A program made the position numbers and the translations under genes. From the NCBI GenBank assembly GCA_964035545.1, contig OZ037765.1, positions 31,929,504 to 31,993,503 on the forward strand: DNA of 64,000 nt. The letters run 5' to 3'. The notes below the pieces were generated by a model. It searched no databases. It saw only the letters and a list, made by a program, of their open reading frames with translations, and was not told where the DNA came from. This document shows positions 37,227 to 63,414 of the stretch, in pieces (position 1 is the first letter of the stretch; each line of letters starts with the position of its first letter). This stretch comes from Bugula neritina (lineage: Eukaryota > Animalia > Bryozoa).

Positions 37227-38423
37227 CACCCTATATAATATGTGATAAATCAGTATGTAATTGAAAAGACACATTCTTGCAAAAAAAACTAACAATGAAT
37301 TACCTCAAATACTTTATGTTCTTCTAAATGATTGACATCTACTCTCAGCACACATTACTTACACCTATGCATAGGGTATCAAGCTTTGACGCAAAATGAG
37401 ATAGATTTTTCACCCCACCCTTTTTAGGGTCACCTTTTGGAATAGGAACACAAGACCGTACATAAAAAAGTAAATTATTCTATTGTAACAAACATAATAT
37501 TTCATCAAATTATATTTTGACCAAACATCTTTCATGAAAAACATCAAATCGATTTGGTATAACATTTTTGATCAGCAAAATGATCGGCCTTTTTTCGTAT
37601 TTTCTTTTTCAGTAAGCTCAAGGTTTACAAATGCATTGCGCAGTTATTGAAATTTTTTCCGAAAGTTTTGTTTGCTGTTTCAGTTTTTGAATATTTTATA
37701 ATAAGTATATATTCACAACGTGCAAATCCATAAGTAAGTTAGAATAGTGATAAAGTTTGAAAGTTTGAAAGTGATAAAAAAAATTATTAAGGAAATAGCA
37801 AATTTTTAGCAGACTAGGATTAACTGAGTAACAAGGAACTTGGTGCATAATTTTTCTTTTCCATCCAAATACCTCAAATCTCAATGAACATAGTAGTGAC
37901 TAAAAGTTTTTTTATATGAACAAGGATTTTTCTCAAAATTGTGTTCTATTATTGCTATGAATATGATTACCTTAGTATGACACAACTTTAACTACACAAA
38001 TTGTGATTATTTGGCTGCGCTTTATCACAAATAAAATAATCCAAGTCAATAACAATGTTAGCCATTTTAATGTTCATACTTGCATATCAATAACGACACA
38101 AGTTTAAAAATGAAGTTAAATATTACAAGTAATAAATTTAAAAATAAGTAAATTAGTAATGTAAATAGTAATATTCTAAGACTAACTAAAATCAAATTCA
38201 AATAGTTCATTTTGCTTTTTATTGATTGCCGATCAGTAAATATGAATATCAACATAAACATTTTGATTACAAACTGTATTGATAATATTAATAGTAATGA
38301 AATTTTTTTTAAAAGGAGAAAATTTAAAATGACTATAACTATAGGGTAAAGTTGAAATTTCAAAAAGCAATTTTGTCTTATTGAATTTAAATTAAATTTA
38401 ATACCTAATACTAATAGTAATGG

Positions 38424-38776
38424 TGTAGTGAGTCATGCAAAGTACAAATACGGGAATCGCCCTCTTTCCGTGCTGGGAATACTAAGACCCTTATGTAGCA
38501 ACCAATTAGCAGCACCGGAAGATATGCTTCCGACTCACGTGACACTTCCCGGGCTATTGACAATTGATCACGTTGTTGTAAGCGGAGGCTTGAAGTAGAA
38601 GCATGTGTTAGTAGTTGACTGATGTATAGGATAATTTGATGTGATGTTTACTTTATGTTTTATTGTGGATAATAAATATAATTACTCGACAGCTACTCTA
38701 GTAATTGCTAGTAGAATAGCCAACTAAGTATACGCAAGTAGATAACTCACGCACAGTAATTGCACGAATTACTACA
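38424..38776 (+). repeat. 5' LTR
   Basis: TGTAGT...ACTACA termini; contains AATAAA; direct repeat of 43430-43782 with about 3 substitutions seen by eye. Confidence 0.95.
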
Positions 38777-38777
38777 G

Positions 38778-38795
38778 TGGTGGCAGCGGTGGGAT
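38778..38795 (+). promoter_or_regulatory. Primer binding site (tRNA-Leu)
   Basis: TGGTGGCAGCGGTGGGAT, 1 nt after the 5' LTR, complementary to the ..ATCCCACCGCTGCCACCA 3' end of metazoan tRNA-Leu (AAG/TAG types). Confidence 0.85.
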
Positions 38796-38811: not shown

Positions 38812-39758
38812 ATGGCAGAAGACGGCACGGAGCTACCCATTCCACTGAACGAAGGTGAGAGAGATAATGTTAATATACCCGTGGAACCAGTAGTGTTAGA
38901 GGAAGTGAGAATTCCTAGAGAGCATGGTGAAGACAGATACCGGCTGAAGGCGCCCACCTTCACAGGCGAAGAAGCAGTGGAGCAGTTTATCCAAGAATTC
39001 CAAGATGTGATGGAAGTTGCACAGTGGCCACCAAGGGTGGCGTTGCTCAAGCTCAGGATGGCGCTGACGGACAAGGCTAAGCCGTACGGAGCGGGACCTG
39101 ACATAGACGGAATCTTTGCTTCTCTGCGGGCCCGCTTTGGCATCTCCCCATAGATGCGCGGGCCCGTCTACAAAGGCTGCGGCGTGATCCTCACACGTCG
39201 CTACAGGAGCACGCTGCCACGGTGTACCCACTAGCGCAGATCGCGTTCCGCGATCTGCCTCCAGTACACCGTGAGAGGTATACTTATGATGCCTTCGTGC
39301 AGTCCATCAACGACTTAGGGCTCCACCATCAATTCCAAGCGAGGGGAGTCACCACGGTCGAAGATGCACTTGCGGTGGGAGAAGCCTACCTCATGGCGAC
39401 TCATATGCACCGCAACCGCGTGGCCTCCCGCCAGGTGGCAACGGAGCACACTACTGCTCATACAGAACCAAACGCGGAACCCTCCGCGGTGGTTAATGTG
39501 AACCAGATGTCACTAGCATCAAAAGTCGCGCAGATGACTGACATGCTAGATAAACTGGTCGCCGCATTAGCTCCCCCAAGCCAGGTAGATGCCGCCCGTG
39601 AGCCTTGCGGGCCGCAGGTACAATCACCAGGCATGGGGCATAACTTCTGCTGGGGATGCGGAAGGCCAGGACATTTCCAGAGGAACTGCCCTCAACTCCA
39701 ACAAGGGTTAAACTACCACGGCCCGCAGATGTTCCCACCTCCTGCGGGCCGTCTGTAA
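38812..39758 (+). pseudogene. gag: gag with a single-base frameshift near 39148
   Basis: LKAPTFTGEEAVEQFIQEF..W..L..AL capsid-like motif. The frame stops at 39153 but continues in the -1 frame (IDARARLQRLRRDP..SLQEHA..). Zinc knuckle CWGCGRPGHFQRNC. Confidence 0.85.
39707..39752 (+). promoter_or_regulatory. Candidate gag-pol -1 ribosomal frameshift signal
   Basis: G_TTA_AAC in the gag frame followed by an 11-bp stem (acggcccgcag / ctgcgggccgt). pol is in the -1 frame. Confidence 0.7.
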
Positions 39759-41719
39759 ATCACCCAGGGAGGCCCGCGCGTCTGCCGCCCCGCTGGGCGC
39801 CGCGCGGAGATGCTGTGAAGTGGCGACCCCCGCGGCAAGTAGGCTCAAGCCACTCGCCGCCTGGGTCCTCTACGCCACTCCAACACCAACACGGATCCGG
39901 CAGACGGTTGATCTCAGAGCCTGCGAGGGAAACGGTACAGGCGCCGCAAGGCGTACCGCCCCAACCTCGGCAGCTGGTCAATAGTCGTCGCCAACCGTGG
40001 ACCCCTCGACCCACAGCGAGGGAGGTGCAACCACGGCACACACAGCTGCAGCCACACGGAAGTAGCTACTTCCTGCCAGGAAAGCTAGCCGGCAAGCCTG
40101 CCAACTTCCTCCTGGACTCAGGCTGCACCACCAACCTCCTTAGCCGTCAATTCTTTGACACCCTCAGCGCTAAGGTCAAGGACGGGTTGGCACCGTATGA
40201 GGGGGATCATGGCACCCTGGCAGACGGGTCGTGCATTCCCTTCTACGGCATTATTGAGCTGACTGGTTACATCCGTAACCAGGCCATCCAAGAGACGTTT
40301 AACGTCGGGCAGCTCAACGAGGACGCTATCCTCGGGATGCCATTCTTACAACGACACGGATGTCGCATCGATTTCAGTAAATCTGCGATGATCATGGGCG
40401 ACAGGGAGCTCGCTTGTGTCGATAAGTTTGGTCGTCCTCTAGCGGGAGCAGTGCAGGTAGTACGGAGCTGTACTATACCAGGCCACTCCCGGGCTACCGT
40501 CCGCTGCAGAGTAGACGGTGGCCAAACCTCTAAGTTGGGAGTTGTCGAAAGTACGCACTCAAGAATCCAACTTGCCCATAGCTTTAGCCGGCTTACGGGA
40601 CAAGGAGAGATCTCAGTGCAGTGCGTCAACCCCTCCTCAGAGACAGTAGACCTACCACCCAGGTCCATGCTGGGCCGCTTCCATCCTGTCCAGGAGGAAG
40701 CCATTGGACCGTCGTCGGGAGCTACGACGGAAGGTCCTCAGCAGAGCCCGTCTCAAGGGCGGAGGACCGTCCCAACCCACGCCTCCCATCCTCCAAGGAC
40801 GCGTGGCTACACAGGCAACGGAAAGCGCCAGGCTATAGCTAGGTTGCCACATGGGTACAGTGAGGCGTTCCGCCACACAGACCACGACGCCCGCCTAAGT
40901 AGAGCAGGCCGTCGTGAGGTATCACGGGCGGCGAAGACCGCCCCTGCTCAGCAACTCCAACAGAGGGCTGACACGCCCCCGGAGGCTGTCCAGAGCCTCC
41001 GCGCCAAACCTGTATGGGCTGGTAACGTTAGGGAGCTGCCGAAGCTCCAGGAAAGCCTTCCTGGGGTGGTAGCCGACGTGTACCGAGCGAAACAGGAAGG
41101 GCGACGACCCAGTAGTAGACAACGGCGACAGGGATGCGCCGAGTTACGGCTGTACTGTCAACGTTGGAACTCTCTGCGGGTCGGGCCAGATGGTCTGCTG
41201 ACCATGACCTTGGCCGCCAACAACAGACAACCAGCCAGGAAGAGGATCGTCTGCCCAGCTGCCATCCGCCGGGAGTTGATACAAGACACCCACGAGAAGA
41301 CTCACGGAGGAGTCCAAGGGGTGGTCACCAAGCTACAACTCCGGTGGTACTGGCCCAACATGGAGCGGGATATCCGGCGCAGAGTGAGACGGTGCGAAGT
41401 CTGCCAGACCAACAAGCATAGCCGTCTCCCTGGTGAAGCGGGGCGGCAGACGCATTGTGCGAGAAGGTCTTGGCAAGCGGAGACTGTCGTCCTGGCCGGA
41501 AACACCTCCATGACACCTCAGGAAGACTTGGCGAGGCGAGAAAGGCCACTTCCGTCCTTGAAAGTGCGCCCACCGCCCCCAACGTCAAGCCTGCCATCAC
41601 CACCACTTCCGGAATCAGAAACGGGTCCGGAAGTGCAAAAACCCCCCGTGGGAGGGGCTCCGCAAGGAGATACCAGCGTAGGAACAACCGTCACAAACAG
41701 GCTGGAAAACCACCCGTGA
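39707..41719 (+). CDS. pol: Internally deleted pol: aspartic protease plus integrase HHCC zinc-binding domain only
   Basis: FLLDSGCTTNLL..AILGMPFL protease and THEKTHGG..WYWPNM..CEVCQ HHCC domain. No YxDD, RNase H or DDE motifs in the 687-aa frame. Confidence 0.88.
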   Translation, partial: VKLPRPADVPTSCGPSVNHPGRPARLPPRWAPRGDAVKWRPPRQVGSSHSPPGSSTPLQHQHGSGRRLISEPARETVQAPQGVPPQPRQLVNSRRQPWTPRPTAREVQPRHTQLQPHGSSYFLPGKLAGKPANFLLDSGCTTNLLSRQFFDTLSAKVKDGLAPYEGDHGTLADGSCIPFYGIIELTGYIRNQAIQETFNVGQLNEDAILGMPFLQRHGCRIDFSKSAMIMGDRELACVDKFGRPLAGAVQVVRSCTIPGHSRATVRCRVDGGQTSKLGVVESTHSRIQLAHSFSRLTGQGEISVQCVNPSSETVDLPPRSMLGRFHPVQEEAIGPSSGATTEGPQQSPSQGRRTVPTHASHPPRTRGYTGNGKRQAIARLPHGYSEAFRHTDHDARLSRAGRREVSRAAKTAPAQQLQQRADTPPEAVQSLRAKPVWAGNVRELPKLQESLPGVVADVYRAKQEGRRPSSRQRRQGCAELRLYCQRWNSLRVGPDGLLTMTLAANNRQPARKRIVCPAAIRRELIQDTHEKTHGGVQGVVTKLQLRWYWPNMERDIRRRVRRCEVCQTNKHSRLPGEAGRQTHCARRSWQAETVVLAGNTSMTPQEDLARRERPLPSLKVRPPPPTSSLPSPPLPESETGPEVQKPPVGGAPQGDTSVGTTVTNRLENHP

Positions 41720-42074
41720 GACATAACAATCCACGGGTGAGCACACCGCCTCCCACAGTGACGACGCCTCCAGGACCACACACTAGGCAAACCCCAGCGT
41801 GTCTCAGAGACTGTGTACGTGACCGCGGTACAAGCGGCAGTAACGAAAGTCTAGCGAGGTCTCGCATGGGAAAACAGGCAAAGAGACGTGGGAGTTGTGA
41901 ACACCACGGAAATCTCAACTTTTGCCTCGGCGGAATCTCACACGAGATTCATCCGCTGGAAGTGAAAAGCCCTAGTCACGTTTCACAACCACGCTGTCCG
42001 GTCTTTTCCTATGTTGATGCAGTCAAGAGTAGACGTGCCACTAAACAGTAATCATTTACCGCTCTCATTCCAAA

Positions 42075-43132
42075 ATGTCTTACTATTCTGGATTGAAGGG
42101 TGAGTTAATTATGTTTTTGGTACGATAACTAGACTGCATCAGTCAGCTTTAGCTACACTAGCTAGCGAGCTGGAGATTCGATAATGATAAACAGTGGTGG
42201 GAATACACGTCGACTTTGATTTTAAATAATCTGCCATAGCGAGTGTGTTCTCCATCAACTATTCATTAGCCTGAATCTCACGAGTGTAACTGAACAGAGT
42301 ACCGGTCAGGCTGTACACGCCGACGGTACCTCAGTGTATAATCTTTAACACTGCTACTCTTTCAGATCACACTCGAGTGACCACCTCCCGGTCACGGGAC
42401 CAGCCAACCTCTCTACCTATGGAAGAAGAACCTGTAATGGAGAACGGCTTACCCGTGGTGCTTCGTCGACGACACCGTTGGGTGTCACCCACGACGGAAA
42501 GGAGAATTGAGGAAGCCTGGGGACCCAGCGGACCCCACCGGACCTGCCAGGTCTGCTTCGAGGAGTGCCTGTCACACCGCTCCCTGCGTCTGCATGTAGA
42601 CGCCCATTTTCTACTCCATTTCTGCCCATGCGGGTTCCACGATGTATACCCGTATCCTGTGATAGTCCACAAGTTGAGCTGCTTCGCCGGAGAGGGCCAT
42701 ATTGTTGATGAGGACAGTTTCCCCCTGTACCTAGACACCATCAAGCCAGTCATCAAGAAGGCTATCACCCTGGCCGCACTAGCGTCAGGGTTCCAAGTAC
42801 TGCTGTTATCCGCCCGCCATAAGTCCCCTATGGTTCAGGGCCCGTCTCCTACCCTCGTCAACCCTAGCAACACCCCCGAATTAGAAGGAACAACAATACC
42901 CCCAATAACAGAGACTACTACAACACCACCAAGGCCTAGCCGGCTGGCTGATGTAGAAGAGCGGCTTGTAAAACTACAAGCCGAGTTTACACAACTGGCC
43001 CCTGACCTGCTGGATACGACGACAGGTCTATACCAGCTGAAGGACTCAGTGGGGCGACTGAAGAGGCGGCTACGTGCCCGAAAGGCTCGACACAGAGCAC
43101 GCTCGCTACAAGAGTCAGAGTCCACCCAATGA
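42075..43132 (+). CDS. Spliced accessory ORF3 (~263 aa): C2H2 + C2HC zinc fingers, leucine zipper, Arg-rich tail; exons 42075-42099 and 42366-43132
   Basis: caaaATG TCT TAC TAT TCT GGA TTG AAG G|GTGAGT ... ctttaac..ctactctttCAG|AT CAC ACT CGA GTG joins in frame with the 251-codon ORF. Motifs C-x2-C-x12-H-x3-H and C-x-C-x12-H-x3-C. Confidence 0.8.
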
Positions 43133-43408
43133 GTATGCCTGGGGTAGGCACCTTTCGTTGAGCTGTATTTCGTCTGGAAAGTGACGAGTGCTCCGACATT
43201 GGCCCGCGTGCTGGTAAGCACCCTCTCTCTTTATAGCTGACTAGATGTGTGTGTTCGATCACCCTGTTTACTTCTGTATATAAATGTTGTCGTACTCAAC
43301 TATTTCTCTTCTTCCTTTTTGTGTGTTTACTTATGTATGTTTTTCTTTTTGGATTATTGTATTGTTTTTCTTTATGTGTTTTTTTGTATTGTGTTATCAG
43401 AAAGTAGG

Positions 43409-43429
43409 GCTTTCTGCTGGGGGGGGCGG
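43409..43429 (+). promoter_or_regulatory. Polypurine tract
   Basis: A G8 run plus cgg immediately precedes the 3' LTR. Confidence 0.8.
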
Positions 43430-43782
43430 TGTAGTGAGTCATGCAAAGTACAAATACGGGAATCGCCCGCTCTCCGTGCTGGGAATACTAAGACCCTTAT
43501 GTAGCAACCAATTAGCAGCACCGGAAGATATGCTTCCGACTCACGTGACACTTCCCGGGCTATTGACAATTGATCACGTTGTTGTAAGCGGAGGCTTGAA
43601 GTAGAAGCATGTGTTAGTAGTTGACTGATGTATAGGATAATTTGATGTGATGTTTACTTTATGTTTTATTGTGGATAATAAATATAATTACTCGACAGCT
43701 ACCCTAGTAATTGCTAGTAGAATAGCCAACTAAGTATACGCAAGTAGATAACTCACGCACAGTAATTGCACGAATTACTACA
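43430..43782 (+). repeat. 3' LTR
   Basis: Near-identical direct repeat of 38424-38776. Confidence 0.95.
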
Positions 43783-44199
43783 ATACTTAACCTAAAAGTA
43801 AAACTGTAAGTTGCCAGTAGCAGTCTTGAGCAAGTAAGTAATACTAACTAAAAATTCAAGTGCAAGACTAATTCAAAGTGAAAGCATAAACTTAGAGTTA
43901 AAGACAGTTCGAGTTCAACTTCAAGTTTAAGTTCCAGTTAAATTTTAATATTAATACTAATACTAAGCCTAATACTAATAGTAATAGTTATAGTTCATAC
44001 TTTAAGTTTATTTATATTAGTTGGTTTGTAATGGCCACAAATGCATTTTTGTGTGTAGCAGTATTATAGCTCATAGAATGTTAAGCAATAAGCTAACGCA
44101 CATAATTCAAACAATATTTTCAAACATTTGTTTAATATGATAGAGTCAGCTATTGGTAAACATTACAGAAAACATCAAAACTTATTTTTGCTTCAAAAC

Positions 44200-45170: not shown

Positions 45171-46955
45171 ATATTAATTATTATTATCACGTTGAATTGA
45201 TTATAATTATATTGATAATAATAATTGAATGACATTGAGTTTGACAGTTATGTTTATTTATATTAATATTGATAATAATCATAATGAATAATATCAATCT
45301 TTTTATCATCAGATCATAATGATCCCCATAGTCATTTTGATTTCTTTTTATATCATAATCCATTATTTATTCATTATCATTGAGTTTGACATTATTATAA
45401 TGATTAAATTTATGATTTATAATTATCGTTATGTCTATCAGAAACTTAAAGTTCAAGTGATTATTCTTAGCCTTATGATTATCATAATCATTATTCAATC
45501 CCATGATCATTCTCATGGTATTAAATTTCAATTCCGGCTAAGAGTAAGACTAATAGTAATACTTATTTATATTACTCATAGTAAATGTAATACTTATAGT
45601 TATATAGTATATACTAAATATGTGATCCTCATATTCCTAACTTATACTTTACTAAATAATAAGTATTATGAATCCTGATGATAATACTATAGATTTGCTC
45701 TTAGATTAACACCAAAAGTTAGAGTAACACTAACTGTAAGTAGAGTCTATAAGATTAAGTGTAACTCAATATATTTAAGTCATGTGACTAAATCAAGTCG
45801 TTAAGTGATAACTATTAGTGTTACTAGGCCTATTACTATTAGTATTAGTATTACTAAAATTAAAATATTAATTTAGTTTTATCTTTTCGGCATCAATATC
45901 GACTATCGTTATTGTATTAGTTTTACTCATAGTTATACTTATTAGTTATTCTTAATAATAATTTAGCTAACGTGAAAAAGATTTAGAATGTAGATTATCT
46001 AACCTTCAAGTTTAAGTATCTGACTTAAAATTATCTTCAATGGTTACAGTTACCCATAAACTTATCTAAATACTTGATCTAATTATGGCATTAATATTGC
46101 AGTTACAGATAGTGAGTTACTGATGCTGACAGAGTTACATTTACTTTTAGACTTATTTAGTAACTACGTTGCTGTTAGTCATAATGATTGTGTTATACAC
46201 ACCTGGTTCTTGTCTTAGATTTGAGTTTTGTCTTTGAGGTTTGCAATCACATTTAACACAGCTTATTTTTAAAACTTTCTAGTTTTACTGTAACATTTCT
46301 CTTCATTTTTCTTTTAAAGCTAGTTAGTTGTTGTTGTTCGCCTTTTAATATTAATCGGCTGGTATTTATTATTTTATAATTTTAGCATTAGTAATAAAAA
46401 TGCATGCCCTTTTAAGATCTATTACCCTACCTCACTGTTTTTAGTTATACATACTTTAACAGTAAACTAATGCTATATTTCATCTTAGAACTAAATACAT
46501 TATTCGAATGGAGTTGCCATTCATGGAGGAAAACAGTGTCATTCAAATGAAACCACCATCCATACTAGCTAAAATCCCATTGGAATTTGCCTTTGTTTGG
46601 ATTATAGATTTTTATTCTAGACACGTGTACAGATTTAGATATAGATATAATGTAGATGTAGATATGTATTTACATATTGTTTACTTGAGTAACTAACAAC
46701 ATACTGCATTCGCTATGTGTTTGTATCTGTGCAGAAGTTTGTAGTCAAGAAATTTAAATGGTTTGTCTACCAGTCATGTCTTTTATTCTGTGTTTACAGG
46801 CTGTATGTTTCATATATTTATAAGATTTGCTAAACCAGCATACAGTCCAGCAATGAAACTCTTGAAAAATTTACACTTTTTAATACAGCCTATTTCGAAA
46901 TCCAGGCTCATATTTAGTTTCATCTGATTGTAGGGCTGGTGGTTGGAGTCTCGCA

Positions 46956-47912
46956 ATGGATTTTCAGAACCGTGCAGGTGGAAAGACCGGTACAGGAGGT
47001 GTGGCCTCTGCTTCTGATGCTAACAGAGAGCGCCGGGAGCGACTGCGTCAACTTGCTCTTGAAACGATTGACATTAATAAAGATCCATATTTTATGAAAA
47101 ATCATTTGGGTTCTTATGAATGTAAACTGTGTTTGACATTGCATAACAATGAAGGGAGCTACCTAGCACATACGCAGGGGAAGAAGCATCAGGCTAATCT
47201 TGGTCGGCGAGCTGCTAAAGATGCCATGACGGCGCCAGCTCAACCTGCCCCGGAGAAAATTAAAATCGATCCGAAAAAGTTTGTCAAGATTGGTCGTCCT
47301 GGCTACAAAGTAACCAAGCAGAGGGATCCGGCCACAACCCAACAGAGTCTGCTGTTCCAGGTGGACTACCCGGAGATAGTGGAGGGTGTGATACCCAGAC
47401 ATCGGTTTATGGCGGCATACGAGCAGAAAATGGAGCCCCCAGACAGGCAATGGCAGTATCTGTTGTTTGCTGCCGAGCCTTATGAGACCATTGCATTCAA
47501 GGTGCCTAGCAGAGAGGTGGACAAAGACCCCCATAAGCTCTGGACGCATTGGAACAAGGAAACCAAGCAATTCTTCTTGCAGTTTGCTTACAAAGTAGAA
47601 TCACAGAAGTCTGAAGAAGAAGCTCGAACCGTTCCACCTTCCTCATTACCAGCAGCCAACATGGCAAGACCTCCACCACCTCCCATACCTGGGATGAGAC
47701 CACCACCTCCAATGGAGGGCATCCGTGGACCACCTCCACCAATGATGAGAGGTCCTCCACCACCCATGGGGATGCCTCCTCGCCCTCCGCCAATGGGGAT
47801 GCCCCCTCCTCCTCGTGGACCCATGCCTCTTCAAATGGCCTCAAGAATGTCAATGCCTCCTCCACCACCATCTCGTCTCCCTGCGCCTCCACCTCCCCCA
47901 GTAGTCAGCTGA
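46956..47912 (+). CDS. SF3A2: Splicing factor 3A subunit 2 (SAP62/Prp11)
   Basis: MDFQNRAGGKTG..RERRERLRQLALETIDINKDPYFMKNHLGSYECKLCLTLHNNEGSYLAHTQGKKHQ (matrin-type zinc finger), FVKIGRPGYKVTKQ, AAEPYETIAFKVP and a Pro-rich C-terminus. Single coding exon. Confidence 0.98.
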   Translation: MDFQNRAGGKTGTGGVASASDANRERRERLRQLALETIDINKDPYFMKNHLGSYECKLCLTLHNNEGSYLAHTQGKKHQANLGRRAAKDAMTAPAQPAPEKIKIDPKKFVKIGRPGYKVTKQRDPATTQQSLLFQVDYPEIVEGVIPRHRFMAAYEQKMEPPDRQWQYLLFAAEPYETIAFKVPSREVDKDPHKLWTHWNKETKQFFLQFAYKVESQKSEEEARTVPPSSLPAANMARPPPPPIPGMRPPPPMEGIRGPPPPMMRGPPPPMGMPPRPPPMGMPPPPRGPMPLQMASRMSMPPPPPSRLPAPPPPPVVS

Positions 47913-49241: not shown

Positions 49242-50174
49242 CTAATGGTGCTTCAGGAATTCATTGGGACTTTTGCAGACTTTTCCACAAACATTGCAGG
49301 CAAGAGGGTTTGCTATACCATGACATAACATGTGCTCCCTAAGTTGAACTGAGTCAGTAAAATAAACTTGGCAATATTTACATGGCCATAGCTGGTTGAT
49401 GCCGGAGTCATGGAGTTGATGTAGGGCCACAGGCTCAATTGGATGGGCTGGTATCAATCTATATTCACTCTGATGTTGTAAAGAAAAACTTTGTGATTCA
49501 TTTTCCATAGAAAGTGAAATTGGTGAATTGTCTATTGGTGACATTTCTAAGCATTTTTCGTATTCTGTTGTGATAGGTAAGTAAAACTGGAAACCAGTTT
49601 TTATGAACTTCTTAATCTGGGCTTGTCCAACTTGACTGTTTGTGTTATTGTCAAACTGAAATTGCCTGACCGATAAATCTAATGGTTCATCTTCAGTTAA
49701 AACTGATCTAGTCATTGATGCAGAAGGTGAAAAAGTCAGACCTCTAGAAGAATTCATTAGGTTTTCTTGAGAAGTTGGGTTCCTGGCTTTTGACAAACTG
49801 TTTTCTTTGCATTTCCTAATGTGCATCTGATGACACTTTTTCCTAACAAACGTCTGAAGACAAGTTTCACACTGATACGGTTTCTCACCAGTATGCAGTC
49901 GGATGTGCTCATTGTAACTGGTTCTTCGGAGGAAGCCCCTCAGGCAGAATTTGCAGGTGTAAGGACGATGATTTGAATGACCTTTCTTATGGCGATTCAA
50001 GTTTCCTATCATAGTGAAACTAGCATTACATATTTCACATATAAACTTCTTCTCAGCTGTAGCACTCTTTGGCTGTTGGTTGTCTGCTATGTTCTCACTC
50101 ATGTCCTCTGCACCAACCTTGTTCTCTTCAGACAGACTTGTACTCATCATCATGTCTTCTAGTCTGTTAATCAT
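49242..50174 (-). CDS. Ikaros/Pegasus/Hunchback-type C2H2 zinc-finger transcription factor
   Basis: Three N-terminal fingers (HTGEKPY linker), a PLDLS CtBP-binding motif and a C-terminal pair CKYCQVYFTD..HMLCHG..PLACNVCG..EF..H resembling the Ikaros/Hunchback dimerisation fingers. Single exon. Confidence 0.85.
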   Translation of the reverse strand: MINRLEDMMMSTSLSEENKVGAEDMSENIADNQQPKSATAEKKFICEICNASFTMIGNLNRHKKGHSNHRPYTCKFCLRGFLRRTSYNEHIRLHTGEKPYQCETCLQTFVRKKCHQMHIRKCKENSLSKARNPTSQENLMNSSRGLTFSPSASMTRSVLTEDEPLDLSVRQFQFDNNTNSQVGQAQIKKFIKTGFQFYLPITTEYEKCLEMSPIDNSPISLSMENESQSFSLQHQSEYRLIPAHPIEPVALHQLHDSGINQLWPCKYCQVYFTDSVQLREHMLCHGIANPLACNVCGKVCKSPNEFLKHH

Positions 50175-52191
50175 TGTAAGTACAGTTTCCAGATCTCTTC
50201 ACTCTGCCATCCGCACACTGAAATAGCAACTCCGGCAGTATTCTTTTGCGAGCGGGTACAAATTCCGGATAACTTATGCTAGCATGAATGACCTTCTCTT
50301 TCATAGTCTAATAGAAAGCAGATTTTGCTAGGGCAAAGCACCACTCCCAACTTCTCTATTATTGGTCAAACTCGACTAATCAGACGCCTTCTCCTTGTTG
50401 GTAGGTTTAATTTTCACAGCTCTTATATTACTCGTTGACTTTTTATATATATATCTATGTATATTTCTCAATTGTAAGTGCGCAAAGATAAAAATTTACT
50501 TTGTAAATCGGTTTGACCTGCGTCAAAAAATTATTAAAAACCATCTCATTGGCTAAAACCGACCAGTATCATTAAAGTATTTTTTCTGACTAGTAAGTAC
50601 ACCAATTTACATACCCGCCCACAGGATGTTTAATAACGAAACTCTAGGCTATTATAAATATCCATGCAGTCATCTTCCCTCCCGTATTGTGTTGAATGGT
50701 TTTGTGTGATATGAAGCTACGCTTTATATAACTGTTTTTTGTATCATTTTATGCCACGTGGAGAGGAAATTAGCTCACATAGCAATTTTGTATCTATTTT
50801 TACGCGACCATTTGAGTTTTGCTCAGCGACGAATGAAATTTGACACTTTTTTTCTTCCTTTACAAATATAAGCGCATTGGAGTGTACATCTTTTAGGATT
50901 TTAATAACTTTAATTATTATGAAGAACAATAAAGTGTGTGTCATCTAATAACTGTTAAATCGTGTAAGTGCAACAAAAATTATATAATATTGAAAAAAAA
51001 TAAATATATTTACTATTTAGTTTAAGATTTTGCTTCATTCAGTTTATCTTACATAATGTTTGACACTTTTATGATAATTGGGCATGAATGTGTTTTTTTT
51101 ATGAGTCATGCATTACAACTATTGTTTTAATGTCAGCTCCTAATTGCGGAAAGAAATTTCAAAACACTTTTCAGTCATAAATTCACTACTTTTAATAATT
51201 TCTGTAGCTTTGAAAAATCTACTCAAAACACACAAATTCTGGAGTCTTTTGAATATAACTGTTAAGTTGTAAAGGTTATTCATGGGCTTTATTTCAAAAA
51301 TAACTTGAAATAGTAAGTATAGTTGTAGTTTTACCACACCCCATAAAGACTGTCAAGGTTTTCCTTCTGCCAAAAGTGCCTTAATTTAAAATTTCAAGTT
51401 GTAAGCTAAACAAACATATTTTGTCGTTGTGTATATCTACTTTTCACTGGCCAATAACCATTATCAGTCATCATTGAGTTTTAAAAGTTGGTCAACTGAA
51501 CTTACGAAAACTTAAGCTTTTTCTTGCAGCAACTATAGCAGCTTCTGCCTCTTTTAATGGAGCTTATTTTTGGCTTAGATCGAGCTGTCTGTTCTCACTA
51601 ATCGATTTAGCACGATACCATTAAATCATTTAGAATCTAGGTTCACTTAACCTGTTTTAACCGATTCAAACAGATGATATTCTCCAACAGAACTCTGTTA
51701 TTATTTCCATTTATGTAGAAGAACTGGACAAACAATGGAAACATAGTGACAGAACCTAATACAAATATACTAAAGTAATCATTAAATTATTCACATCTGC
51801 TATTTATTGATATACCTATTTTCATACCATATGTATAGATGATGAAATATGCCATAATGAACAGCGGTCTGCATTAGTCTACTGAATAAACATTTGAAAC
51901 ATTATATTATAACCTGATCTTTAAATCATTGCTATTCTGTATTCTTTACAGATCTTTCTACAATATCACTTTGAAATAATTCATTAATAAAGACATCTAT
52001 AATGTTAACTTTTTAAAAAGTCTTAACATTTTCAATAATTCATTCCATTTGGAAACGTTATCCTTGCTTTGAATCCCCCAATTTGCTACAATGTATAAAA
52101 AGTATATACATCTACTGTATTTTATGCAGAACAATATAACATAATGAGTCAATCTTTCAACTTTCAGCAAATTATAATAAAAATTCAATAA

Positions 52192-53040
52192 CCTCCTTTA
52201 ATAAGCAAGTAATTATTGCAACAAAACGTGAAGCAGAAGTAATTTAACTTTCTTATCACTAAAACTACCCATTCATAGCTTCTTTTGATATGGTATCTTT
52301 TCACGAAGCAAAACAAAGAATATGAATCAGCTATGGTCAAAATGCATGAAAATATGACTACAATTATTTGTAGGCTCATATTATAAGAACAAATGTAAAG
52401 TTTAGTTACTCGCTTGTTCCTATCTATTGACCCTCACTGTCCATTTTTAGGAAGAATTTTGACAGCTCAATACCCTTATATTTGACGGGTTGTCCTTATT
52501 GAATCGACTTAGCCAGGGCATTTATTATTCATAAGCTAAGACAACGTCAAAGTTTTCTTTTATGTATATAATATACTAACCCATGAAGATGCCTAAATAC
52601 CGTGTGGTGTAGAAATTCTGAAGCCATATAAAAATAGAAGCTTATGAATTTCGTAAGATATGCATACTTAGTCCTTCAGGTCTTAAACCTTGCCTTGAAT
52701 TTATATATGAATTTCATTACCATTTATACGATGGTCAAACAGTTGTAGTGATTTATAATACATAAGTCTTCCTACAGCTGGACATAAGGGGGTCAATAGA
52801 TAGGAACATGCCAGTAAATAGTTGCTATGGTTGTTCTCATACAATACTGCATGTAAATAACTATTATTATTCAAATTTTCAGGCATTTTACCACAGTTGA
52901 TTCACATCCTTTGTTTTGTTTAGTAATAAGATACCAGAGCAAATGGAGTTATAAATATTTGAGTAATTTTAATAAGAAACACTAAAATATTTTTGCTACT
53001 TGTTTTGCTAAAATATTTAGTTTATTGAAACAGGATAAGC
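52192..53040. mobile_element. Foldback/MITE element with long degenerate inverted arms (copy A)
   Basis: tgttcctatctattgaccc (~52415) is inverted relative to gggtcaatagataggaaca (~52790). The arms extend outward (aagcaaaacaaagaatatgaatcagctatggtcaaaatgc vs gcattttaccacagttgattcacatcctttgttttgttt). Confidence 0.75.
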
Positions 53041-53939
53041 AATTTATATAATCTGCAGAAAGTTAGGAGACTGACCTATTATGTTCTACTATTCTGCATA
53101 AAATATAATAGATACATATAATTTTAGTAGCAAATGAGGGAAAACTATTATATAATCAGTTAGGTATGATTGGATTCAAAAATTTATCAACACAATTAGA
53201 TTGTTTTATAATGTAATGAATTGTTAAAAATTAGTTAGAGTGTAAAAAAGATTTATATAACTTGAAACTTTGTAACACATTTTTAAAGTGCTTTTATTAA
53301 ACTTGCATCAATTGTAAATGGCTGCATTTTTTTAAAGTCATATATAAAGATATGTGAACAATAAAGTTTTAATTATTCAATTATAAGTTTAAAATATGAT
53401 ATTTCAAATACTATAATTTATTCCATAATTTGAAAAGTTCAACACGCTGTTCATCGTAACATACTTCATTATTTATACACATCTGGCATAAATATAGGTA
53501 TCTCAATAAAACGCAGATGTATAGTTTAATGGATATGTTAATATAGCTGTATATGAGGCTAACCAGAAGAGCCTGCCACTATGTTTCATTGTTTATACAG
53601 TTCTGCTATATAATTGCATGGAGACAGTAACTCAGTTCTGTTTGAGTGTATATTAATTGTCTTGAATAACTTTTTTGAAACCCACTTTTATAACTACACC
53701 CAAGTAGCTTTTGTAATATATACGAAGTAGTTTCATTTTGTTTGTTAGTATGAATACATATTTACTATGTTTTATACAACATAATCGAATCTCAGTCTTT
53801 TAAATTTCTGTAAAAATTCACAAATAAAAAATAGTCTGCCTGTTTTATTAATAAGCAACGGATTATTTCTGCAAAGCATGAAACAGAATTACCCCTGTTT
53901 TCTTATCACTAAAAATATCATTACATAATAACTTTATTG

Positions 53940-54110
53940 CTGATGCTTCCTCTCTCTTCTTTCTCCCCTCTATTCCGTTTCCTCTCTATAATGTGCCCCT
54001 TCCCACTCTTTCTCCCCTTTCCCTTTCTCGCTACTCCCCCATCCTCTTCTCTTGTTACACTCCCTTCTCTCCCTCCCCTGCACCCCTTCCTCTCTCTACC
54101 CCTGTCCCCT
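53940..54110. repeat. Polypyrimidine (C/T) low-complexity tract
   Basis: Directly visible. Confidence 0.8.
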
Positions 54111-54268
54111 ACCAAACAAAGCAACTTGCTGCAAATAATATATGTTGAAAACACATGAGAAAGAAGCTATTTATAACCCTATATTATGAAGAGTATCATA
54201 AGCACTGATTAATCTATGTGGTGTGGGTGTAGGCAACACCTGATGCTAGCTTCACATTTTATAGGAAT

Positions 54269-54830
54269 ATGTTCCCATCTATTGACCCTTCTCTGTCCAT
54301 TTTTAGAAAGAAATTTGACAGCTCAGTACCCTTATATTTGATGGGTTGTCCTCATTGAATCGACTTAGCCAGGGCATTTATTATTCATAAGCTGAGACAA
54401 CGTCAAAGTTTTTTTTTATATATATAATATACTAGCCCATGAAGATGCCTAAATACCATGTAGTGTAGAGATTCTGAAGCCATATAAAAATAGAAGCTTA
54501 TGAATTTCGTAAGATATGCATACTTAGTCCTTCAGGTCTTAAACCTTGCCTTGAATTTATATATGAATTTCATTACCATTTATAAGATGTTTAAATAGCT
54601 ATAGTGATTTATAATACATAAGTCTTCCTACAGCTGGACATAAGGAGGTCAATAGATAGGAACATGCCAGTAAATAGTTGCTATGGTTGTTCTCATACAA
54701 GGTACTGTAAATAACTATTATTATTCAAATTTTCAGACATTTTACTATATGCATACTTAGTCCTTCAGCTCTTAAACCTTGCCTTGAATTTATATATAGA
54801 CTTTACTACTATGATTTATAATACATATTG
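54269..54830. mobile_element. Foldback/MITE family copy B
   Basis: Highly similar direct copy of ~52415-52890, plus a short internal duplication at ~54748-54830. Confidence 0.8.
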
Positions 54831-55757
54831 TATAGCTCAGTATAATACACTAGCTCAGTGTACAATACTGTTATAGCATATTATAGTGAACAGGAATAAC
54901 TGCAGTTTGTTTTGTATAGTTAGAGTTTCTTTTTATCTCATAATCATCATGTTGAGTTACATTTGTAATATTTAATCGGAGTGTTGTTGACTTGTGATGA
55001 AAATCTGTTTGAACAAATAGTACGACACATTTGTCTAATGTATGATTTAAGTTTACCAGGCACTCTATCACATCGCATCCAATTTACAGTCTGCGGAGCA
55101 AAGTTGCACTTAGGAAGAATACCTTCACAAAATCATTCATCTATAGTGTAAATAACTTTTTTGTAACAAAATAATATGTTGAATTTGTAAAAAAATTTAT
55201 ATTTATCTTTATATGTATTTAAAAACTAAGTGAAAACTACAGACTGCTGTAAAATTTTCCCATGAAACCATTAACATAAACAAGATGTCACTTTCGAAAC
55301 AACATAGCATTTAACTTGACTTGTGGCACTATGGGTACAGAGGCAAGCTTTCAATAAAAAGGCTCATTTCTTATTTGATTGTATTACTATCTAATATGTA
55401 CCAGAATAAAGAAATGTATAGACCTGGTAAGTGAATCATCAGTAAAATCTTCCAGAAATCCGGAACCAAATGTCTAACACTCTCTCAGCTAGACCCTAGC
55501 TGTTATGACATTTATATTACAACATGTTCTATATCAAGAGTCAATAATCAGCTCTGCTTTGTGTGATGTAATCAGAATGACGTCTTAGGTCCATCTACTC
55601 TGCAGCTTCAACGTTTCTATGCTGTAAAAACATTTGCCAATACGTGGGAGACTGAAACGGAACGTTGTGGTCAAGGATTTCTTAAACCCTAATTAAAGTA
55701 TTGAGTTCAGAATTTTTTTTTCCTTCTCATACTAATGTATATGTCTTAATTAATCGA

Positions 55758-55923
<166 letters not shown>

Positions 55924-55964
55924 TGTAGTTTAAACTTTATTCTGTTGACTACATAAAGAATATT

Positions 55965-56400
55965 TTGAAGTCTTCCCAACTCATGAATAATAAATGTCCT
56001 GACTAATTCGATTCAACAAGGACATCCCATGCATCAACTAAAAGAGTATTAAGCTGTCCAAATTCTTCCTACAGCCAGACATAAGAGGGTCAATAGATAG
56101 GAACAAGCCAGTAATTAGTTTCCATAATTCTTCTTTATAATATATGGGACTATAAATAGTTATTATTCTATTCTTAATGCATTTTTACCATATTTTATTC
56201 ACATCCTTGGTTTTGCATGTCTATTGTGGTAAGGTACCAAATCAACTTTGGTAGTTCAACAGTAATTAGTTACTTATTGAAGTAACTTCTTATGTTTGAT
56301 TGTGCTGTATGAAATAGAATTGATATATAATTTTAGTAGCAAATGAGGGAAAACTATTATGTAATCAGCTAGGTGTAATGAGATTAAAAAATCTACTCAA
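55965..56400. mobile_element. Foldback/MITE family copy C (right arm)
   Basis: ttcctacagccagacataagagggtcaatagataggaaca; shares ataattttagtagcaaatgagggaaaactattat with ~53118. Confidence 0.7.
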
Positions 56401-56843
56401 AACAAATATATTGCCTTCATAGGATATAAACTATTTGAAAGGTAAAACCCTTCTAATCATTGAAGTTAAAAGGTTAGTCTTCTATAAACTCTCTCATCTT
56501 CTAACTCTCTGTAGAAGTTCACAGATATACCTATAAGAAAACGCTCCGCCTGCTTCAATAAGCAGCTAATTCTTGTAAAGCGTAGCAGAAACATTTCAGC
56601 TTTTCTTATCCCTAAAAAGCACATGTACATCCATAGCTTCTTCTGCTTTAATCTCCCCCATTAAGAAAAGCTAAGGGAGTGACTAAACTGCTAAAATGCA
56701 TATGAGAGATGCTATTAATAATTATTTATTACCTTATAAAAGGATTGTATTAACATCACGTGTTCACTACACCCACACCATGCTCCCATAGGCCGGGTGG
56801 GTGTTGGCAAAACGTGATGTTAACCTCATATTATATAGGAAAT

Positions 56844-57360
56844 TATTCCTATCTATTGACCCTTCCCTGCCCAATTTTTATGAAAGATTTTGACAGCTTA
56901 ATACTCTTTTAATTGATGAGTTGACCTCAAGTTGAATCGAGTTAGCCAGAAAATTTATTATTCGTAAGTTGAGACAAGTCAAAGTATTTCTAACGTATAT
57001 AATAATCATTCTAGCCCACTAATGGAGATACTTACATGCAAGCCATATAAACTTTGAGACTTACGTATCCATTTAGGAGCAGTAGTGGAGAAATTGAGAT
57101 GCCTAAGTTCTTTAGATTTCTTTATAAATTTTAGTTTGGGGCGCAAGTTGAAATTCTTGTGAGAACATATCTTCTTTTGCTACATTTCTAATCTAGAACA
57201 CAGGCTTTTTTCAATTTCTCCGTTACTGCACCTACCTCTATTGATTTTGTAAAGTGACGTAAATATTTAGTCCTTCAGCTCTTAAACTTTGCCATGTGTT
57301 TATATAAAAATTTCATTACCATTTATAAGATAATTAAATACTTGTCTTGATTTACAATAC
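56844..57360. mobile_element. Foldback/MITE family copy D (interrupted)
   Basis: ttcctatctattgaccc..ttgacagctta..ttgaatcgagttagcca, resuming at ttagtccttcagctcttaaac after an unrelated insert. Confidence 0.7.
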
Positions 57361-59201
57361 ATATCTCAATGTGATATTCAACAGTGTGCTCCAACAGTTT
57401 ATATAGTTGTTATAGCATACTAGGATAAAGTGTAGTTGTAGTTAAACCTTCATTGTATTGGCAATATCATCACTTAGGTCTTAGAGGTATGGAAACGTGT
57501 TACACTCTTCTCAATTTTCAGCACATCAACTTCCTTTGTGATTGGTTTGTTTGCTTACAAAAGTGTGGGAATATAATATTTATCTATTTAGAATGTAAAA
57601 GTTTTAACCTAACCTTTCAATTGTGGTATGGGAAACCTCACGTAAAGGACTAACCAAGCGGAATCAATAAATGACTTAAATCATTCAAACAAATTTATTT
57701 TCCTTACATTCAATTATAAAATAATTAGGTCAATATATACGATTATCTATTAAAGATCACATACAATTTAGTACAAGTTGGTTGGTGCTTATATGCATCT
57801 AGCAGTCTCAATTACAATGTCATTAAACTGTAGCATTGGGTCTCGCCATTTTAAAAATAGTATCTATGTTTAGGAAACAATAGTAAATTTTGAATAACTA
57901 TGCATGTGTAATAATAGAAAGTATGTATCATAATTTTTTTTAACAATAGGTCTTGAATATCGTTACCATTGAACTTATAGTTGATTGCTATAATATCAAA
58001 TTTGGCAGCAAGTTATCCACATTGTCTGTACATGTCGGCCATGTTTATGATTTTATCAGATAAGATCATTCCCTTCAACTAAAATTAGCAAGCCTGTAGA
58101 GTTATACTTCACATCCTTTTGGCTTAAGTCCAGTTGCTGACTAATTCCAGCAGCTTTTGGCAACATAAGTATAGTCTTTGCTCATTTACCCAATAACATT
58201 TCCAAGCCCAGAGAAGGCGCACTGTTGAGTTTTATCTTTATTATAACCTTTAAAAGCCTTTACCAACGGTGAAACCTAAATTAAATAAAATTAACTATAA
58301 TATGGTAATTAATGAATAAATGACATTAATAAAAAAGCATCATACAAGAAATATCATTATATTTAAATTGAAGCTACAGCACTATAAATTATATCAAAAA
58401 GAAACAAAAATCTGAAATATAAAACAGCTACCTTGTAAATCTCTATGTCTAGTAGTGATGTCTTATTATATGGTAACTATACTATATATAGTATAGTATA
58501 TAGTATAGTATATATAATATATATAGTAAGTATTCCGCCTGATATCTTATATACAGACGAAATTGTAGCATAACCCTGTATGACTGTAGAAATAGCCTAA
58601 AAATTAAGAGTATTAATTTATTACGCAACATAGGCTATAGGCTATAGGCTATATAGCTTAATGTCTAGCAATCCTTGGTAAAATAGCCTGCTAGCTCATC
58701 TTAAGCTGAGTCATTCTAGTTGGTTTTATAACTAGATTAATATTAATATGAATTGTCAGCTGACTGGCCAAAAACCCTGACCGAGATAAGGTGTGGTTTA
58801 TAAACCTAGTCTAGTGTAAAAAGCTGTACAGGGAACTCAAATCAAAATAAGCTCAATCATGTTCTTATGTTTTATGGTATTATCAACTTTACTATATAAT
58901 ATATAAGATTATTTTTTCTGTCAAATCTTGCTAATAATTTCAATGTCTTCAGTAATAACGAATTTCAGTGAGCTGGTACTTAGCTATATTCTTTTAAAAT
59001 TTTCGATTTACTAATTATAGCCAACGCAGTGTTTTTATACTGTGAAGATATCTTTCGATACTGAGAGGTGGAAACAGAGCGAGAATACTAACACACTGTT
59101 CAACTTCACTGCACAAAGTATTCCTCGCAGCTGCATAAGTGTCATGGGATTTCGATCTAGTATTTACAGGTATCTTAATTCATAATAAACTCATATGCAT
59201 G

Positions 59202-59396: not shown

Positions 59397-60247
59397 TTAA
59401 TTAATTCATAATGAACGATTCAATAAATTTCAAATTTTCATGATTATATAAAAATGTTACAGAGAAATCTGCTAATATTATTAGACTGTGTAAAGTCTCT
59501 ATATTCTGTGTAAAGTCTCTATATTACTATATTACGTGAACAAAGTGTATTGAAAGAGGAAGGAGTTATACTCATTTATATTTGATAGACCTCATGCATG
59601 CAGCGTTAGGCAATTTCAAGTTAGAGCAAATTAGAGCCAAAGTGGTATAGTCAAATTATATGAATTATTCTTGTGCGTCTCATTTTATCAAAACATGTTT
59701 GATTTGCTACCATTTTAAAAATAATTTCTGCTTTCCAGTTAACAATATATTTTGTATTTCATCACTTGCTAACGCTGACCCATAATGTCAAAGCTAGAAT
59801 TATATCATGCAAGGTCAATTCAGCACTTGCCTGATATGGCACGTGCTGAAAGTTATATTTATACGCTGCAATCATCATAGAAAGTATCAGTTAAAGCATT
59901 TGGTAGACATCAAATTGATAGACATTCTGAGCTGATGCTGGTGCTATAGAAGAGCAGACAACTTTGAATAACATTTTGGGATGGCAGTTGTGTAATATTA
60001 ATACATTTACCCTTACTATAGAAAGTTATAGTGTCTATATTATATCTATTGTTGTTATTCTAAAGTTAAATTATAAAAACATATTTAATTGAAATTATAG
60101 ACCAAAAGTGCTACTCCTGAAAATATAGCATTAAATAAACGTTTATTATGCACTTATAGGCAGTGATAAAGGCTGAATGTATGGTTTGTGGTCATAAATT
60201 TCTTTATCAAAATATGACCTAGCATATAGTATCTTATTCCTAGGAAT

Positions 60248-61998
<1,751 letters not shown>

Positions 61999-63414
61999 TA
62001 TACGCACGTTAGTGTGTGTGTACAAACTATGTTACTGCAGAATTCTAGTTACCAGTCATCAGGTAGTCCTCAAGCCTTTTCTGGTAAAATCTAGCTAAAT
62101 ACTACATGTTTAAAGGTTTAATTGACTTAGATTTTATTTAAAATGAATTATCTATAAACTTGTTTGGTAGCATAAACTAATTACTAATTAATATCAGTAA
62201 TATTTACTTGCATAGATACAGTGGAAGGTTCAAAGTCAGGAAGACTTGGTGTGTTATACTGATCCCGGATATATTTCTATAGAATATTTAATTCTAAACC
62301 TGCACAGGATAGTTAAGGGCATCCTCACTAAGAATATCATAAATTTCTCTCAAAATGTAGTTCAGGTTCTTGAATAATTTTGCTCTGCGGGTGGCATGCG
62401 TCTTGCCTACTTGCATTTGCTTAGCCTAAGATTAAACTACAACCAATAAGCAGCAACCTTCATTAGGGCTGTGTTATCTATCAACATTCCATTATGGGTG
62501 CTACATAAACATAGTACAAAGCGAGCTTTCATTATAGTCTGCTAGCTAGCAAGCCTGTAATTAGTATGTACGCGCCAATATCTTCTCATCCCTACGTGCT
62601 CATTGAAGCGTGAAGTGCTGCCGCTGCTAGTTTCTTATGAAAAAATATGGCATTTTCAGTGTATAAATCACCAATTTATGAGCAATCTAGCAGAGTTATT
62701 GGAAAAAGAAAAAAATTGCACTGGAGAAATATCTCAGGATTCTAGCAGTGCAATTTCTATTCAGATATCGTCTTTTGCTGCTGAGATATTTTACTGGCAC
62801 TGAAAAGTCAGCTTTTTTGGCAAAATTGGCCAAAATTGGGCAGTTTTTTGTCTATAACTTGGCAAAAAAAATGAAAATTGAAATTTCCAAAAAAGCTGCA
62901 CTGGAGAAAAAGAAGATCTACAACATAGTTTTTAAATTTTGACTCTAGCACAATTAGGTGAGATTTTATTTTACTGGCACTGAATTCTTATATGATTACA
63001 ATGCAAACCTCAGCAAGGCAGTTGCAGCTGAAAGGTTGCCCTTAACTATCCTGTGTGAATAAACATTGTGCTTGACTCATGATGAATATGCACACCACTA
63101 CGCCTACACCCACCCGGATTTGAAAGTTTTAGCAATAATATGCCAGCAAACTCATCACAACATATGTAGTATTGAAATCTTCTTGCTTACTACCGCAACA
63201 CTGCTTTGACGTTGTTTTGAATTATCAATAATAAAACTTATACATAATTTGAATATAAGAGAAACACATTAATTTTGAGAAAGATAAAACTGTCAAAAAT
63301 ACTCCTACGCATTGAAAGAAAAAATTTAGTAGGAGGGAACTATCCATATATATACATTGTGACATGAGCATCATGCGTAGCTCCTATATACCCGCAACAA
63401 AGCAATGATAATTA

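Follow-up and report, generated by a model that had tools for sequence, protein, structure and literature searches.

Does the envelope position of a Gypsy-type retrotransposon in the bryozoan Bugula neritina hold a spliced gene for something other than an envelope, and if so, what might its product do for the element? The question is raised by a 5.36 kb element in the window, the 64,000-nucleotide stretch of DNA analysed here, where it forms a GC-rich island within an AT-rich, animal-type genome. The element, all of whose features lie on the + strand, has the hallmarks of Ty3/Gypsy LTR elements, namely two TG...CA LTRs, a primer-binding site and a polypurine tract. The 5' LTR (TGT...ACA, 38424..38776) and the 3' LTR (43430..43782, with AATAAA at 43677) differ at only 3 of 352 compared positions, and the insertion is therefore young. 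One base past the 5' LTR lies the primer-binding site (38778..38795), a TGG-starting 18-mer that we take to be tRNA-Leu-like, and just before the 3' LTR is the G-rich polypurine tract (43419..43429), preceded by a very T-rich stretch of the 3' untranslated part (43290-43400). No target-site duplication of 4-6 nt was found at either junction (38404-38430, 43776-43802) of these 99% identical LTRs; the two bases preceding the 5' LTR are the final two bases of the polypurine tract.

Gag (38812..39758) ends in a CCHC knuckle (zf-CCHC, E 2.4e-4) and is frameshifted near 39150. What the original prediction called pol is indeed pol-derived, but it is a deleted remnant: the 691-codon frame (39644..41719) contains only an aspartic protease and an integrase zinc-binding domain, and a domain search found no reverse transcriptase, RNase H or integrase core within it. 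The domain order in the element is thus CCHC knuckle, protease and integrase zinc-binding domain; in P0255, a related polyprotein of Gypsy order whose Pol part is 35% identical to the remnant over 164 aa, RNase H precedes integrase. [quoted passage not shown]

The third gene of the element is a real gene, and its frame is intact. It comprises a coding exon of 25 nt that brings an ATG of its own (42075..42099), a 266-nt GT-AG intron (42100..42365) and a main coding exon (42366..43132). Every signal originally described here was found, from caaaATG at 42075 and the donor AGG|GTGAGT at 42100 to CTTTAAC, a pyrimidine tract and a CAG reaching 42365, and the phases match across the join to give a product of 263 aa with the N-terminus MSYYSGLKDHTR. 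The frame itself had been miscounted at 251 codons; it runs for 254 whole codons past the acceptor and 280 from stop to stop. Nor can the 25-nt exon be the first exon of an RNA started in the LTR, because it sits 3.6 kb into the element. A chance ORF was rejected, the frame staying open in 0 of 2000 dinucleotide shuffles. Insect errantiviruses (Env ORF3) and retroviruses place env in the same slot and express it by a subgenomic splice whose donor lies close to the start of gag and whose acceptor follows pol. The third protein differs from these in showing no apparent signal peptide, no clear membrane helix (best 19-residue hydropathy 1.55, by which measure 3 of 50 close homologs exceed 1.6) and no fusion-protein match; Env was rejected on these grounds, as the original prediction held.

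How, then, might the gene be expressed from an LTR-started transcript? By a crude count of consensus matches, the donors at 42100 and 38855 tie for best of the 197 GT sites between 38777 and 42365; of 147 YAG sites there, the acceptor ending at 42365 ties for second. The donor at 38855 (AAG|GTGAGA) lies 43 nt into gag, has a phase identical to that of 42100, and defines an alternative upstream exon (38812..38854) of 14 Gag codons plus one base. The 42100/42365 pair of the proposed splicing scheme therefore stands, but this second same-phase donor had been missed. Since other in-phase AGs exist (42299, 42377, 42425 and 42428, all four of which yield long products), the choice of 42365 as the acceptor needs outside evidence.

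Such evidence comes from homologs and from a sequencing run, X1. One of the 120 listed close homologs, P0012 (a lone record on a 5320-nt contig, read as protein), opens with 14 Gag-like residues, 12 of them identical to the Gag start of the window, which run straight into DHTR, exactly as a 38854/42366 join would have it; residues 1-48 of P0012, used as a search query, matched nothing except P0012 itself. A D-H/Y-T-R start is visible in 29 of the 120 close homologs, and in 28 of these 29 it is preceded by FS, LS or LL, compatible with the imprint of a translated pyrimidine tract and AG. Homolog P0002 translates through the entire intron and begins with VS, which fits GTGAGT. In X1, a 117-nt contig (depth 843, which is not a copy number) carries the joined form and omits exactly 42100-42365, GT to AG, with 89 nt on its exon-2 side and 28 nt, under the 31-nt threshold, on its exon-1 side. 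By a hand estimate that assumes uniform breakpoints (8 joints in 561 nt), an exact match to both predicted intron ends would arise by chance about once in 10,000. The contigs of X1 are long and their depths even (~40-105), which makes it look like genomic DNA; if it is DNA, the skip represents copies derived from spliced RNA. An intron-less form of the kind sought is thus seen, and the conservation across homologs, the X1 contig and the Gag-joined P0012 together lend support to the splice sites.

X1 contributes several further observations. No variant row falls in 42062-42203, though this is not proof of identity, and the gag-donor joint is not among the 15 of 49 X1 joints listed. Seven further joints begin or finish inside the intron (42100-42371), some of them losing the branch-like site, and coverage is thin at 42283-42358, the 3' portion of the intron being variable. 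One diverged contig (42050-42080) differs upstream of the internal ATG, which it apparently keeps; an acceptor-like AG immediately precedes that ATG, a hint that some subfamilies have the 25-nt exon as an internal one. In the window, an AG ending at 42022 is a candidate upstream acceptor for this exon.

Overall, we believe that the third gene is likely made from spliced RNA, and that two splices with a common acceptor are indirectly supported: an env-like subgenomic splice from the gag start, which would give 269 aa, and a short form of 263 aa from the internal ATG. At the same time, the claim that regulated splicing is implied goes further than necessary, because plain incomplete splicing accounts equally well for the coexistence of intron-less and intron-bearing forms.

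The protein itself has the parts that had been described, C-x2-C-x12-H-x3-H, C-x-C-x12-H-x3-C, a Pro/Thr linker, the heptads L-L-F-L-L-V-L and an Arg-rich tail. The two ligand sets had been seen as zinc fingers; what had been overlooked is that the model predicts them as one compact domain (42443..42836) with flanking helices and strands, rather than as a classical tandem array. Residues 27-157 alone, modelled with the family alignment, give a single domain with pLDDT 94 and pTM 0.87. Finger 1 shares its spacing with Kruppel-type C2H2 fingers and weakly matches classical DNA-binding ones (SALL3, E 7e-6; Kaiso, Z 4.0, rmsd 3.6, 59 residues). The likeness ends there, for the second finger has C-x-C in place of C-x2-4-C and ends in H...C(H), the inter-finger linker is a hydrophobic five-residue F-x-x-x-F and not of the TGEKP type, and both fingers belong to one predicted globule. 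In the finger 1 helix, positions +2 and +5 are basic in 75-87% of sequences and +6 is hydrophobic.

Searches for a known fold returned little. The whole model retrieved generic coiled coils only (Z up to 6.4), and Foldseek matched the domain model to nothing in PDB or BFVD at E 0.001; in VIA the best hit of the domain model had Z 4.2 with none at Z 5, an absence that is no proof of a new fold. There is no Pfam family for the third protein of the window, and the ESM Atlas gave weak leads only, without a usable match.

Beyond the domain, the Pro/Thr linker (42837..42926) is variable and predicted to be disordered (pLDDT <50), and it is followed by a predicted coiled coil ending in the Arg-rich tail (42944..43102). 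In 43 of 56 further homologs (tails of at least 60 aa, near-duplicates included), the C-terminal heptads score above 19 or more of 20 shuffles. Clusters of K/R outside the domain occur in 42 of 60 close homologs, against 5.6 in shuffles, and in 19 of 57 distant ones, against 7.1. The position of the basic cluster shifts, such that distant relatives have it before the coil and do not keep the Arg tail after it. A leucine-rich export signal was sought and gave four loose pattern matches, each inside the folded domain and none outside, and a SUMO motif showed no enrichment among homologs.

The family is far wider than a single locus. We found 130 close homologs, the 120 listed being 51-90% identical, and a profile search returned 135 representatives (50% clustering), 63 of them at E 1e-10. 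Among 45 close sequences, mean pairwise identity reaches 69% for the zinc domain and 80% for the coil and Arg tail and falls to 29% for the linker; because the domain and coil are conserved while the linker is not, the protein appears to be under selection. Of the zinc ligands, seven are retained by 88-94 of 95 near and far aligned sequences, and the eighth by 63. Coding variants in X1 (9 of 19 synonymous) are too few and too selected for dN/dS. The description of a conserved non-Env accessory protein, borne by the element and equipped with zinc ligands, a coiled coil and a basic patch, therefore holds, with the addition of a wide family that had been overlooked and that answers the concern that the gene might be confined to this copy. 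Capture of a host gene by one copy was rejected, given the many element homologs and the domain after integrase in distant Gypsy polyproteins, where it is ~20-25% identical. This makes the domain a long-standing passenger of the Gypsy lineage rather than a one-copy capture. Neither close nor middle alignments detected relatives of the locus in metagenome or viral contigs, and no 1023-2920-aa protein with the domain emerged from 6123 candidates in a weak search that missed P0255 too.

The same zinc domain occurs in bryozoan proteins annotated as host gene models. Organism names were available for 5 of 30 clusters looked up, and all were bryozoan: Watersipora subatra (XP_067940963/4, XP_067944745) and B. 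neritina (KAF6040922/3, KAF6037488). Such models, among them P0248, P0252, P0260, P0182 and P0273, carry one or two copies of the domain (20-33% identity), mostly with a C-terminal coiled coil. Two of the Bugula locus tags adjoin, and P0182, P0252 and P0260 apparently have an extra N-terminal region in common, as judged by eye. The double-zinc domain may therefore also serve in host roles, and domestication or a donor family are possible origins of these models. A quick, unrooted domain tree of 98 rows (10 of the 120 close homologs kept, 10 near-duplicate cluster members dropped) left 45 of 93 branches open; the named bryozoan rows were unclustered (122 of 500 shuffles were equally low), and the tree does not decide direction, such that the bryozoan genes could be donors, domesticates or mis-annotated elements.

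What might such a protein do? The nearest precedent is Cer1, a Gypsy/Ty3 element of C. elegans, in which the env slot holds an ORF that does not encode Env, CERV, spliced onto exons derived from Gag; CERV has a zipper and a Cys finger along with a basic nuclear signal, and export of the genomic RNA depends on it (PMC10309623, PMC3315495). PMC10309623 describes CERV as a nematode-only protein of 517 aa and five exons, with a C4 loop, a ring-forming M domain and a G-protein-like domain, and notes that the function of most extra env-slot ORFs of LTR retrotransposons is unknown. The third gene resembles CERV in that it, too, occupies the env slot of a Gypsy element without encoding Env; it may further resemble CERV in being spliced to the Gag N-terminus, a join that one homolog record (P0012) shows. 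It differs in that it would take only 14 Gag residues and adds a second, internal ATG exon, and that its protein has ~265 aa, a C2H2 + C2HC double-zinc domain and a C-terminal coil. Its relatives include bryozoans, with no nematode name among the 30 clusters looked up, and its function is predicted by analogy, whereas that of CERV has been shown. In length, ligand pattern and predicted architecture, the third protein differs from CERV.

Rev, as PMC10309623 describes it, is the comparable RNA-export protein of complex retroviruses. The third protein shares with Rev, Rex and Rec a probable origin in spliced RNA, an Arg-rich and (by prediction) oligomerising character and a predicted structured region in the intron, and an Arg-rich motif of the Rev/Rex type is present. 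Rev has no zinc domain and carries a leucine-rich CRM1 export signal; the third protein, in contrast, has a zinc domain, and no leucine-rich signal was found outside it.

Taking these comparisons together, we tentatively favour, at a little short of an even chance, a nuclear, self-associating RNA-binding regulator that, like CERV or Rev, would control the export or splicing of element RNA. We favour this role because the gene repeats the layout of CERV point by point with different parts, and finger 1 does not belong to a classical DNA-reading array. Against it stands the absence of any sequence or fold link in our searches to CERV, Rev or Rex. The pathway can be pictured as follows. Default splicing of LTR transcripts would yield the third protein, starting either in Gag or at the internal ATG, and the protein would oligomerise via its coiled coil. 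It could then use the basic face of finger 1, along with the Arg tail, to bind structured element RNA, and the bound protein would shift the balance towards full-length RNA, allowing unspliced genomic RNA to escape splicing and leave the nucleus. With two strong donors and a strong acceptor, the full-length RNA does have strong splice sites to be skipped, and because the protein would act in trans, a defective copy such as this one could still supply it.

Candidate RNA targets are present in the element. The intron (42100-42365) is predicted to fold into long stems, with z -3.8 and better than 200 of 200 shuffles, and a cluster of stable predicted hairpins lies inside gag (39110..39330; -99.5 kcal/mol, z -7.3, matched by 0 of 200 shuffles), three to four in number, one of them with palindromic arms. 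Across the gag-pol remnant overall, 7 of 38 folding windows fall under z -3, against 0 of 22 in two nearby host genes used as a control. Pairing is kept at 6 of 9 paired sites among X1 intron variants, with no compensatory change among them, and a check of Rfam for a structured response element gave no match. The folded intron and the gag hairpins are candidate cis elements, and the latter might be a packaging, dimer or response element.

The strongest alternative, which we consider unlikely though a serious contender, is that the protein works at the level of DNA or chromatin, binding the LTR or the silencing machinery to activate or protect transcription of the family, in the manner of Tat/Tas-like or anti-silencing factors. 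C2H2 fingers bind DNA more commonly than RNA, the SALL3 and Kaiso matches of finger 1 point the same way, a zinc domain with coiled coil and basic cluster is a frequent transcription-factor layout, and the domain is present in annotated bryozoan genes. In addition, a motif resembling HP1-binding boxes, [PL]xVx[LIVM]x[RKQA][ILMV], is carried by 8 of the 57 distant homologs, where shuffles give 1.1. This pattern was chosen post hoc, however, and is missing from all 60 close homologs, and strict PxVxL is not enriched in the distant set (9 of 57 against 5.1 expected, shuffle maximum 12). Six distant homologs (P0146, P0148, P0151, P0162, P0165 and P0170) combine a P/LxVxL-like motif with a KRRR-type cluster in the linker, a combination not seen in the close family. 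The missing TGEKP-type linker and the hydrophobic +6 also speak against DNA reading, and a DNA-level role leaves the strong splice sites and the folded intron unexplained.

Considerably less probable is a helper role in the particle or in integration, with the domain acting as an integrase-chromatin tether or Gag partner, whether made as an extension of Pol or as a spliced protein of its own. The end of Pol is where chromoviruses carry their chromodomain, and the domain follows integrase in frame in a member of 2 of the 30 clusters looked up: in P0255 after RNase H-integrase-SH3, and in P0265 after the integrase tail. The Gag N-terminus of the Gag-joined form would also suit a Gag partner. In both polyproteins, however, several hundred low-complexity residues part the domain from integrase, other members of the two clusters begin at their own Met, and in the family of the window the domain has a gene to itself, placed after an acceptor. 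In Cer1, too, the env-slot exon is in the polyprotein frame, according to PMC10309623. Finally, a captured host zinc-finger exon of no benefit to the element, or splice signals that are incidental, is very improbable: host-like bryozoan gene models do have the domain, and the intact frame proves little because the copy is young, but three things argue against it: domain-wise conservation among the 130 close homologs, the place of the domain after integrase in distant elements, and the acceptor being hit exactly by two independent joins.

Returning to the RNA regulator, the idea of a 'complex' retrotransposon is not new, its novelty having been overstated, because the CERV design was already published (PMC10309623, PMC3315495). 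What appears to be new is the family of proteins with its predicted fold, as well as the arrangement of two donors and the occurrence across elements and bryozoan gene models. No description of the family was found in the literature searched, whose scope lay outside Repbase-type annotations, subscription journals and supplements, and a term search of two mollusc/annelid LTR surveys (PMC6238403, PMC8556966) did not find 'additional ORF', 'third ORF', 'envelope' or 'zinc finger'. The family would stand beside CERV as a second, apparently unrelated and more widespread candidate for a non-Env regulator in the env slot, one whose small zinc domain is confidently modelled without a solved-fold match, whose splice junctions are defined and for which RNA targets can be proposed. 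It thereby makes testable the repeated evolution of Rev-like control in envelope-less retrotransposons, and the takeover or donation of the domain by hosts. In its boldest form, which we consider doubtful, a marine-invertebrate Gypsy lineage would have followed a 'complex' plan over hundreds of millions of years, with a Rev-like regulator that arose separately from CERV and from retroviral Rev and is based on a novel double-zinc fold, two alternative splices, a folded-intron target and exchange with hosts in the form of the bryozoan genes.

The surroundings of the element in the window include two host genes, one encoding the splicing factor SF3A2 in a single open frame (46884-47912, +; Pfam E 1.7e-39) and the other a multi-finger C2H2 protein (49242-50198, -). 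Several dispersed repeats of 57-300 nt and 82-99% identity lie at 52431-57363 and are possibly small non-autonomous elements. The stretch at 59500-62500 has extreme strand skew (GC skew -0.92, AT skew +0.8) and is probably an A/C-rich simple repeat.
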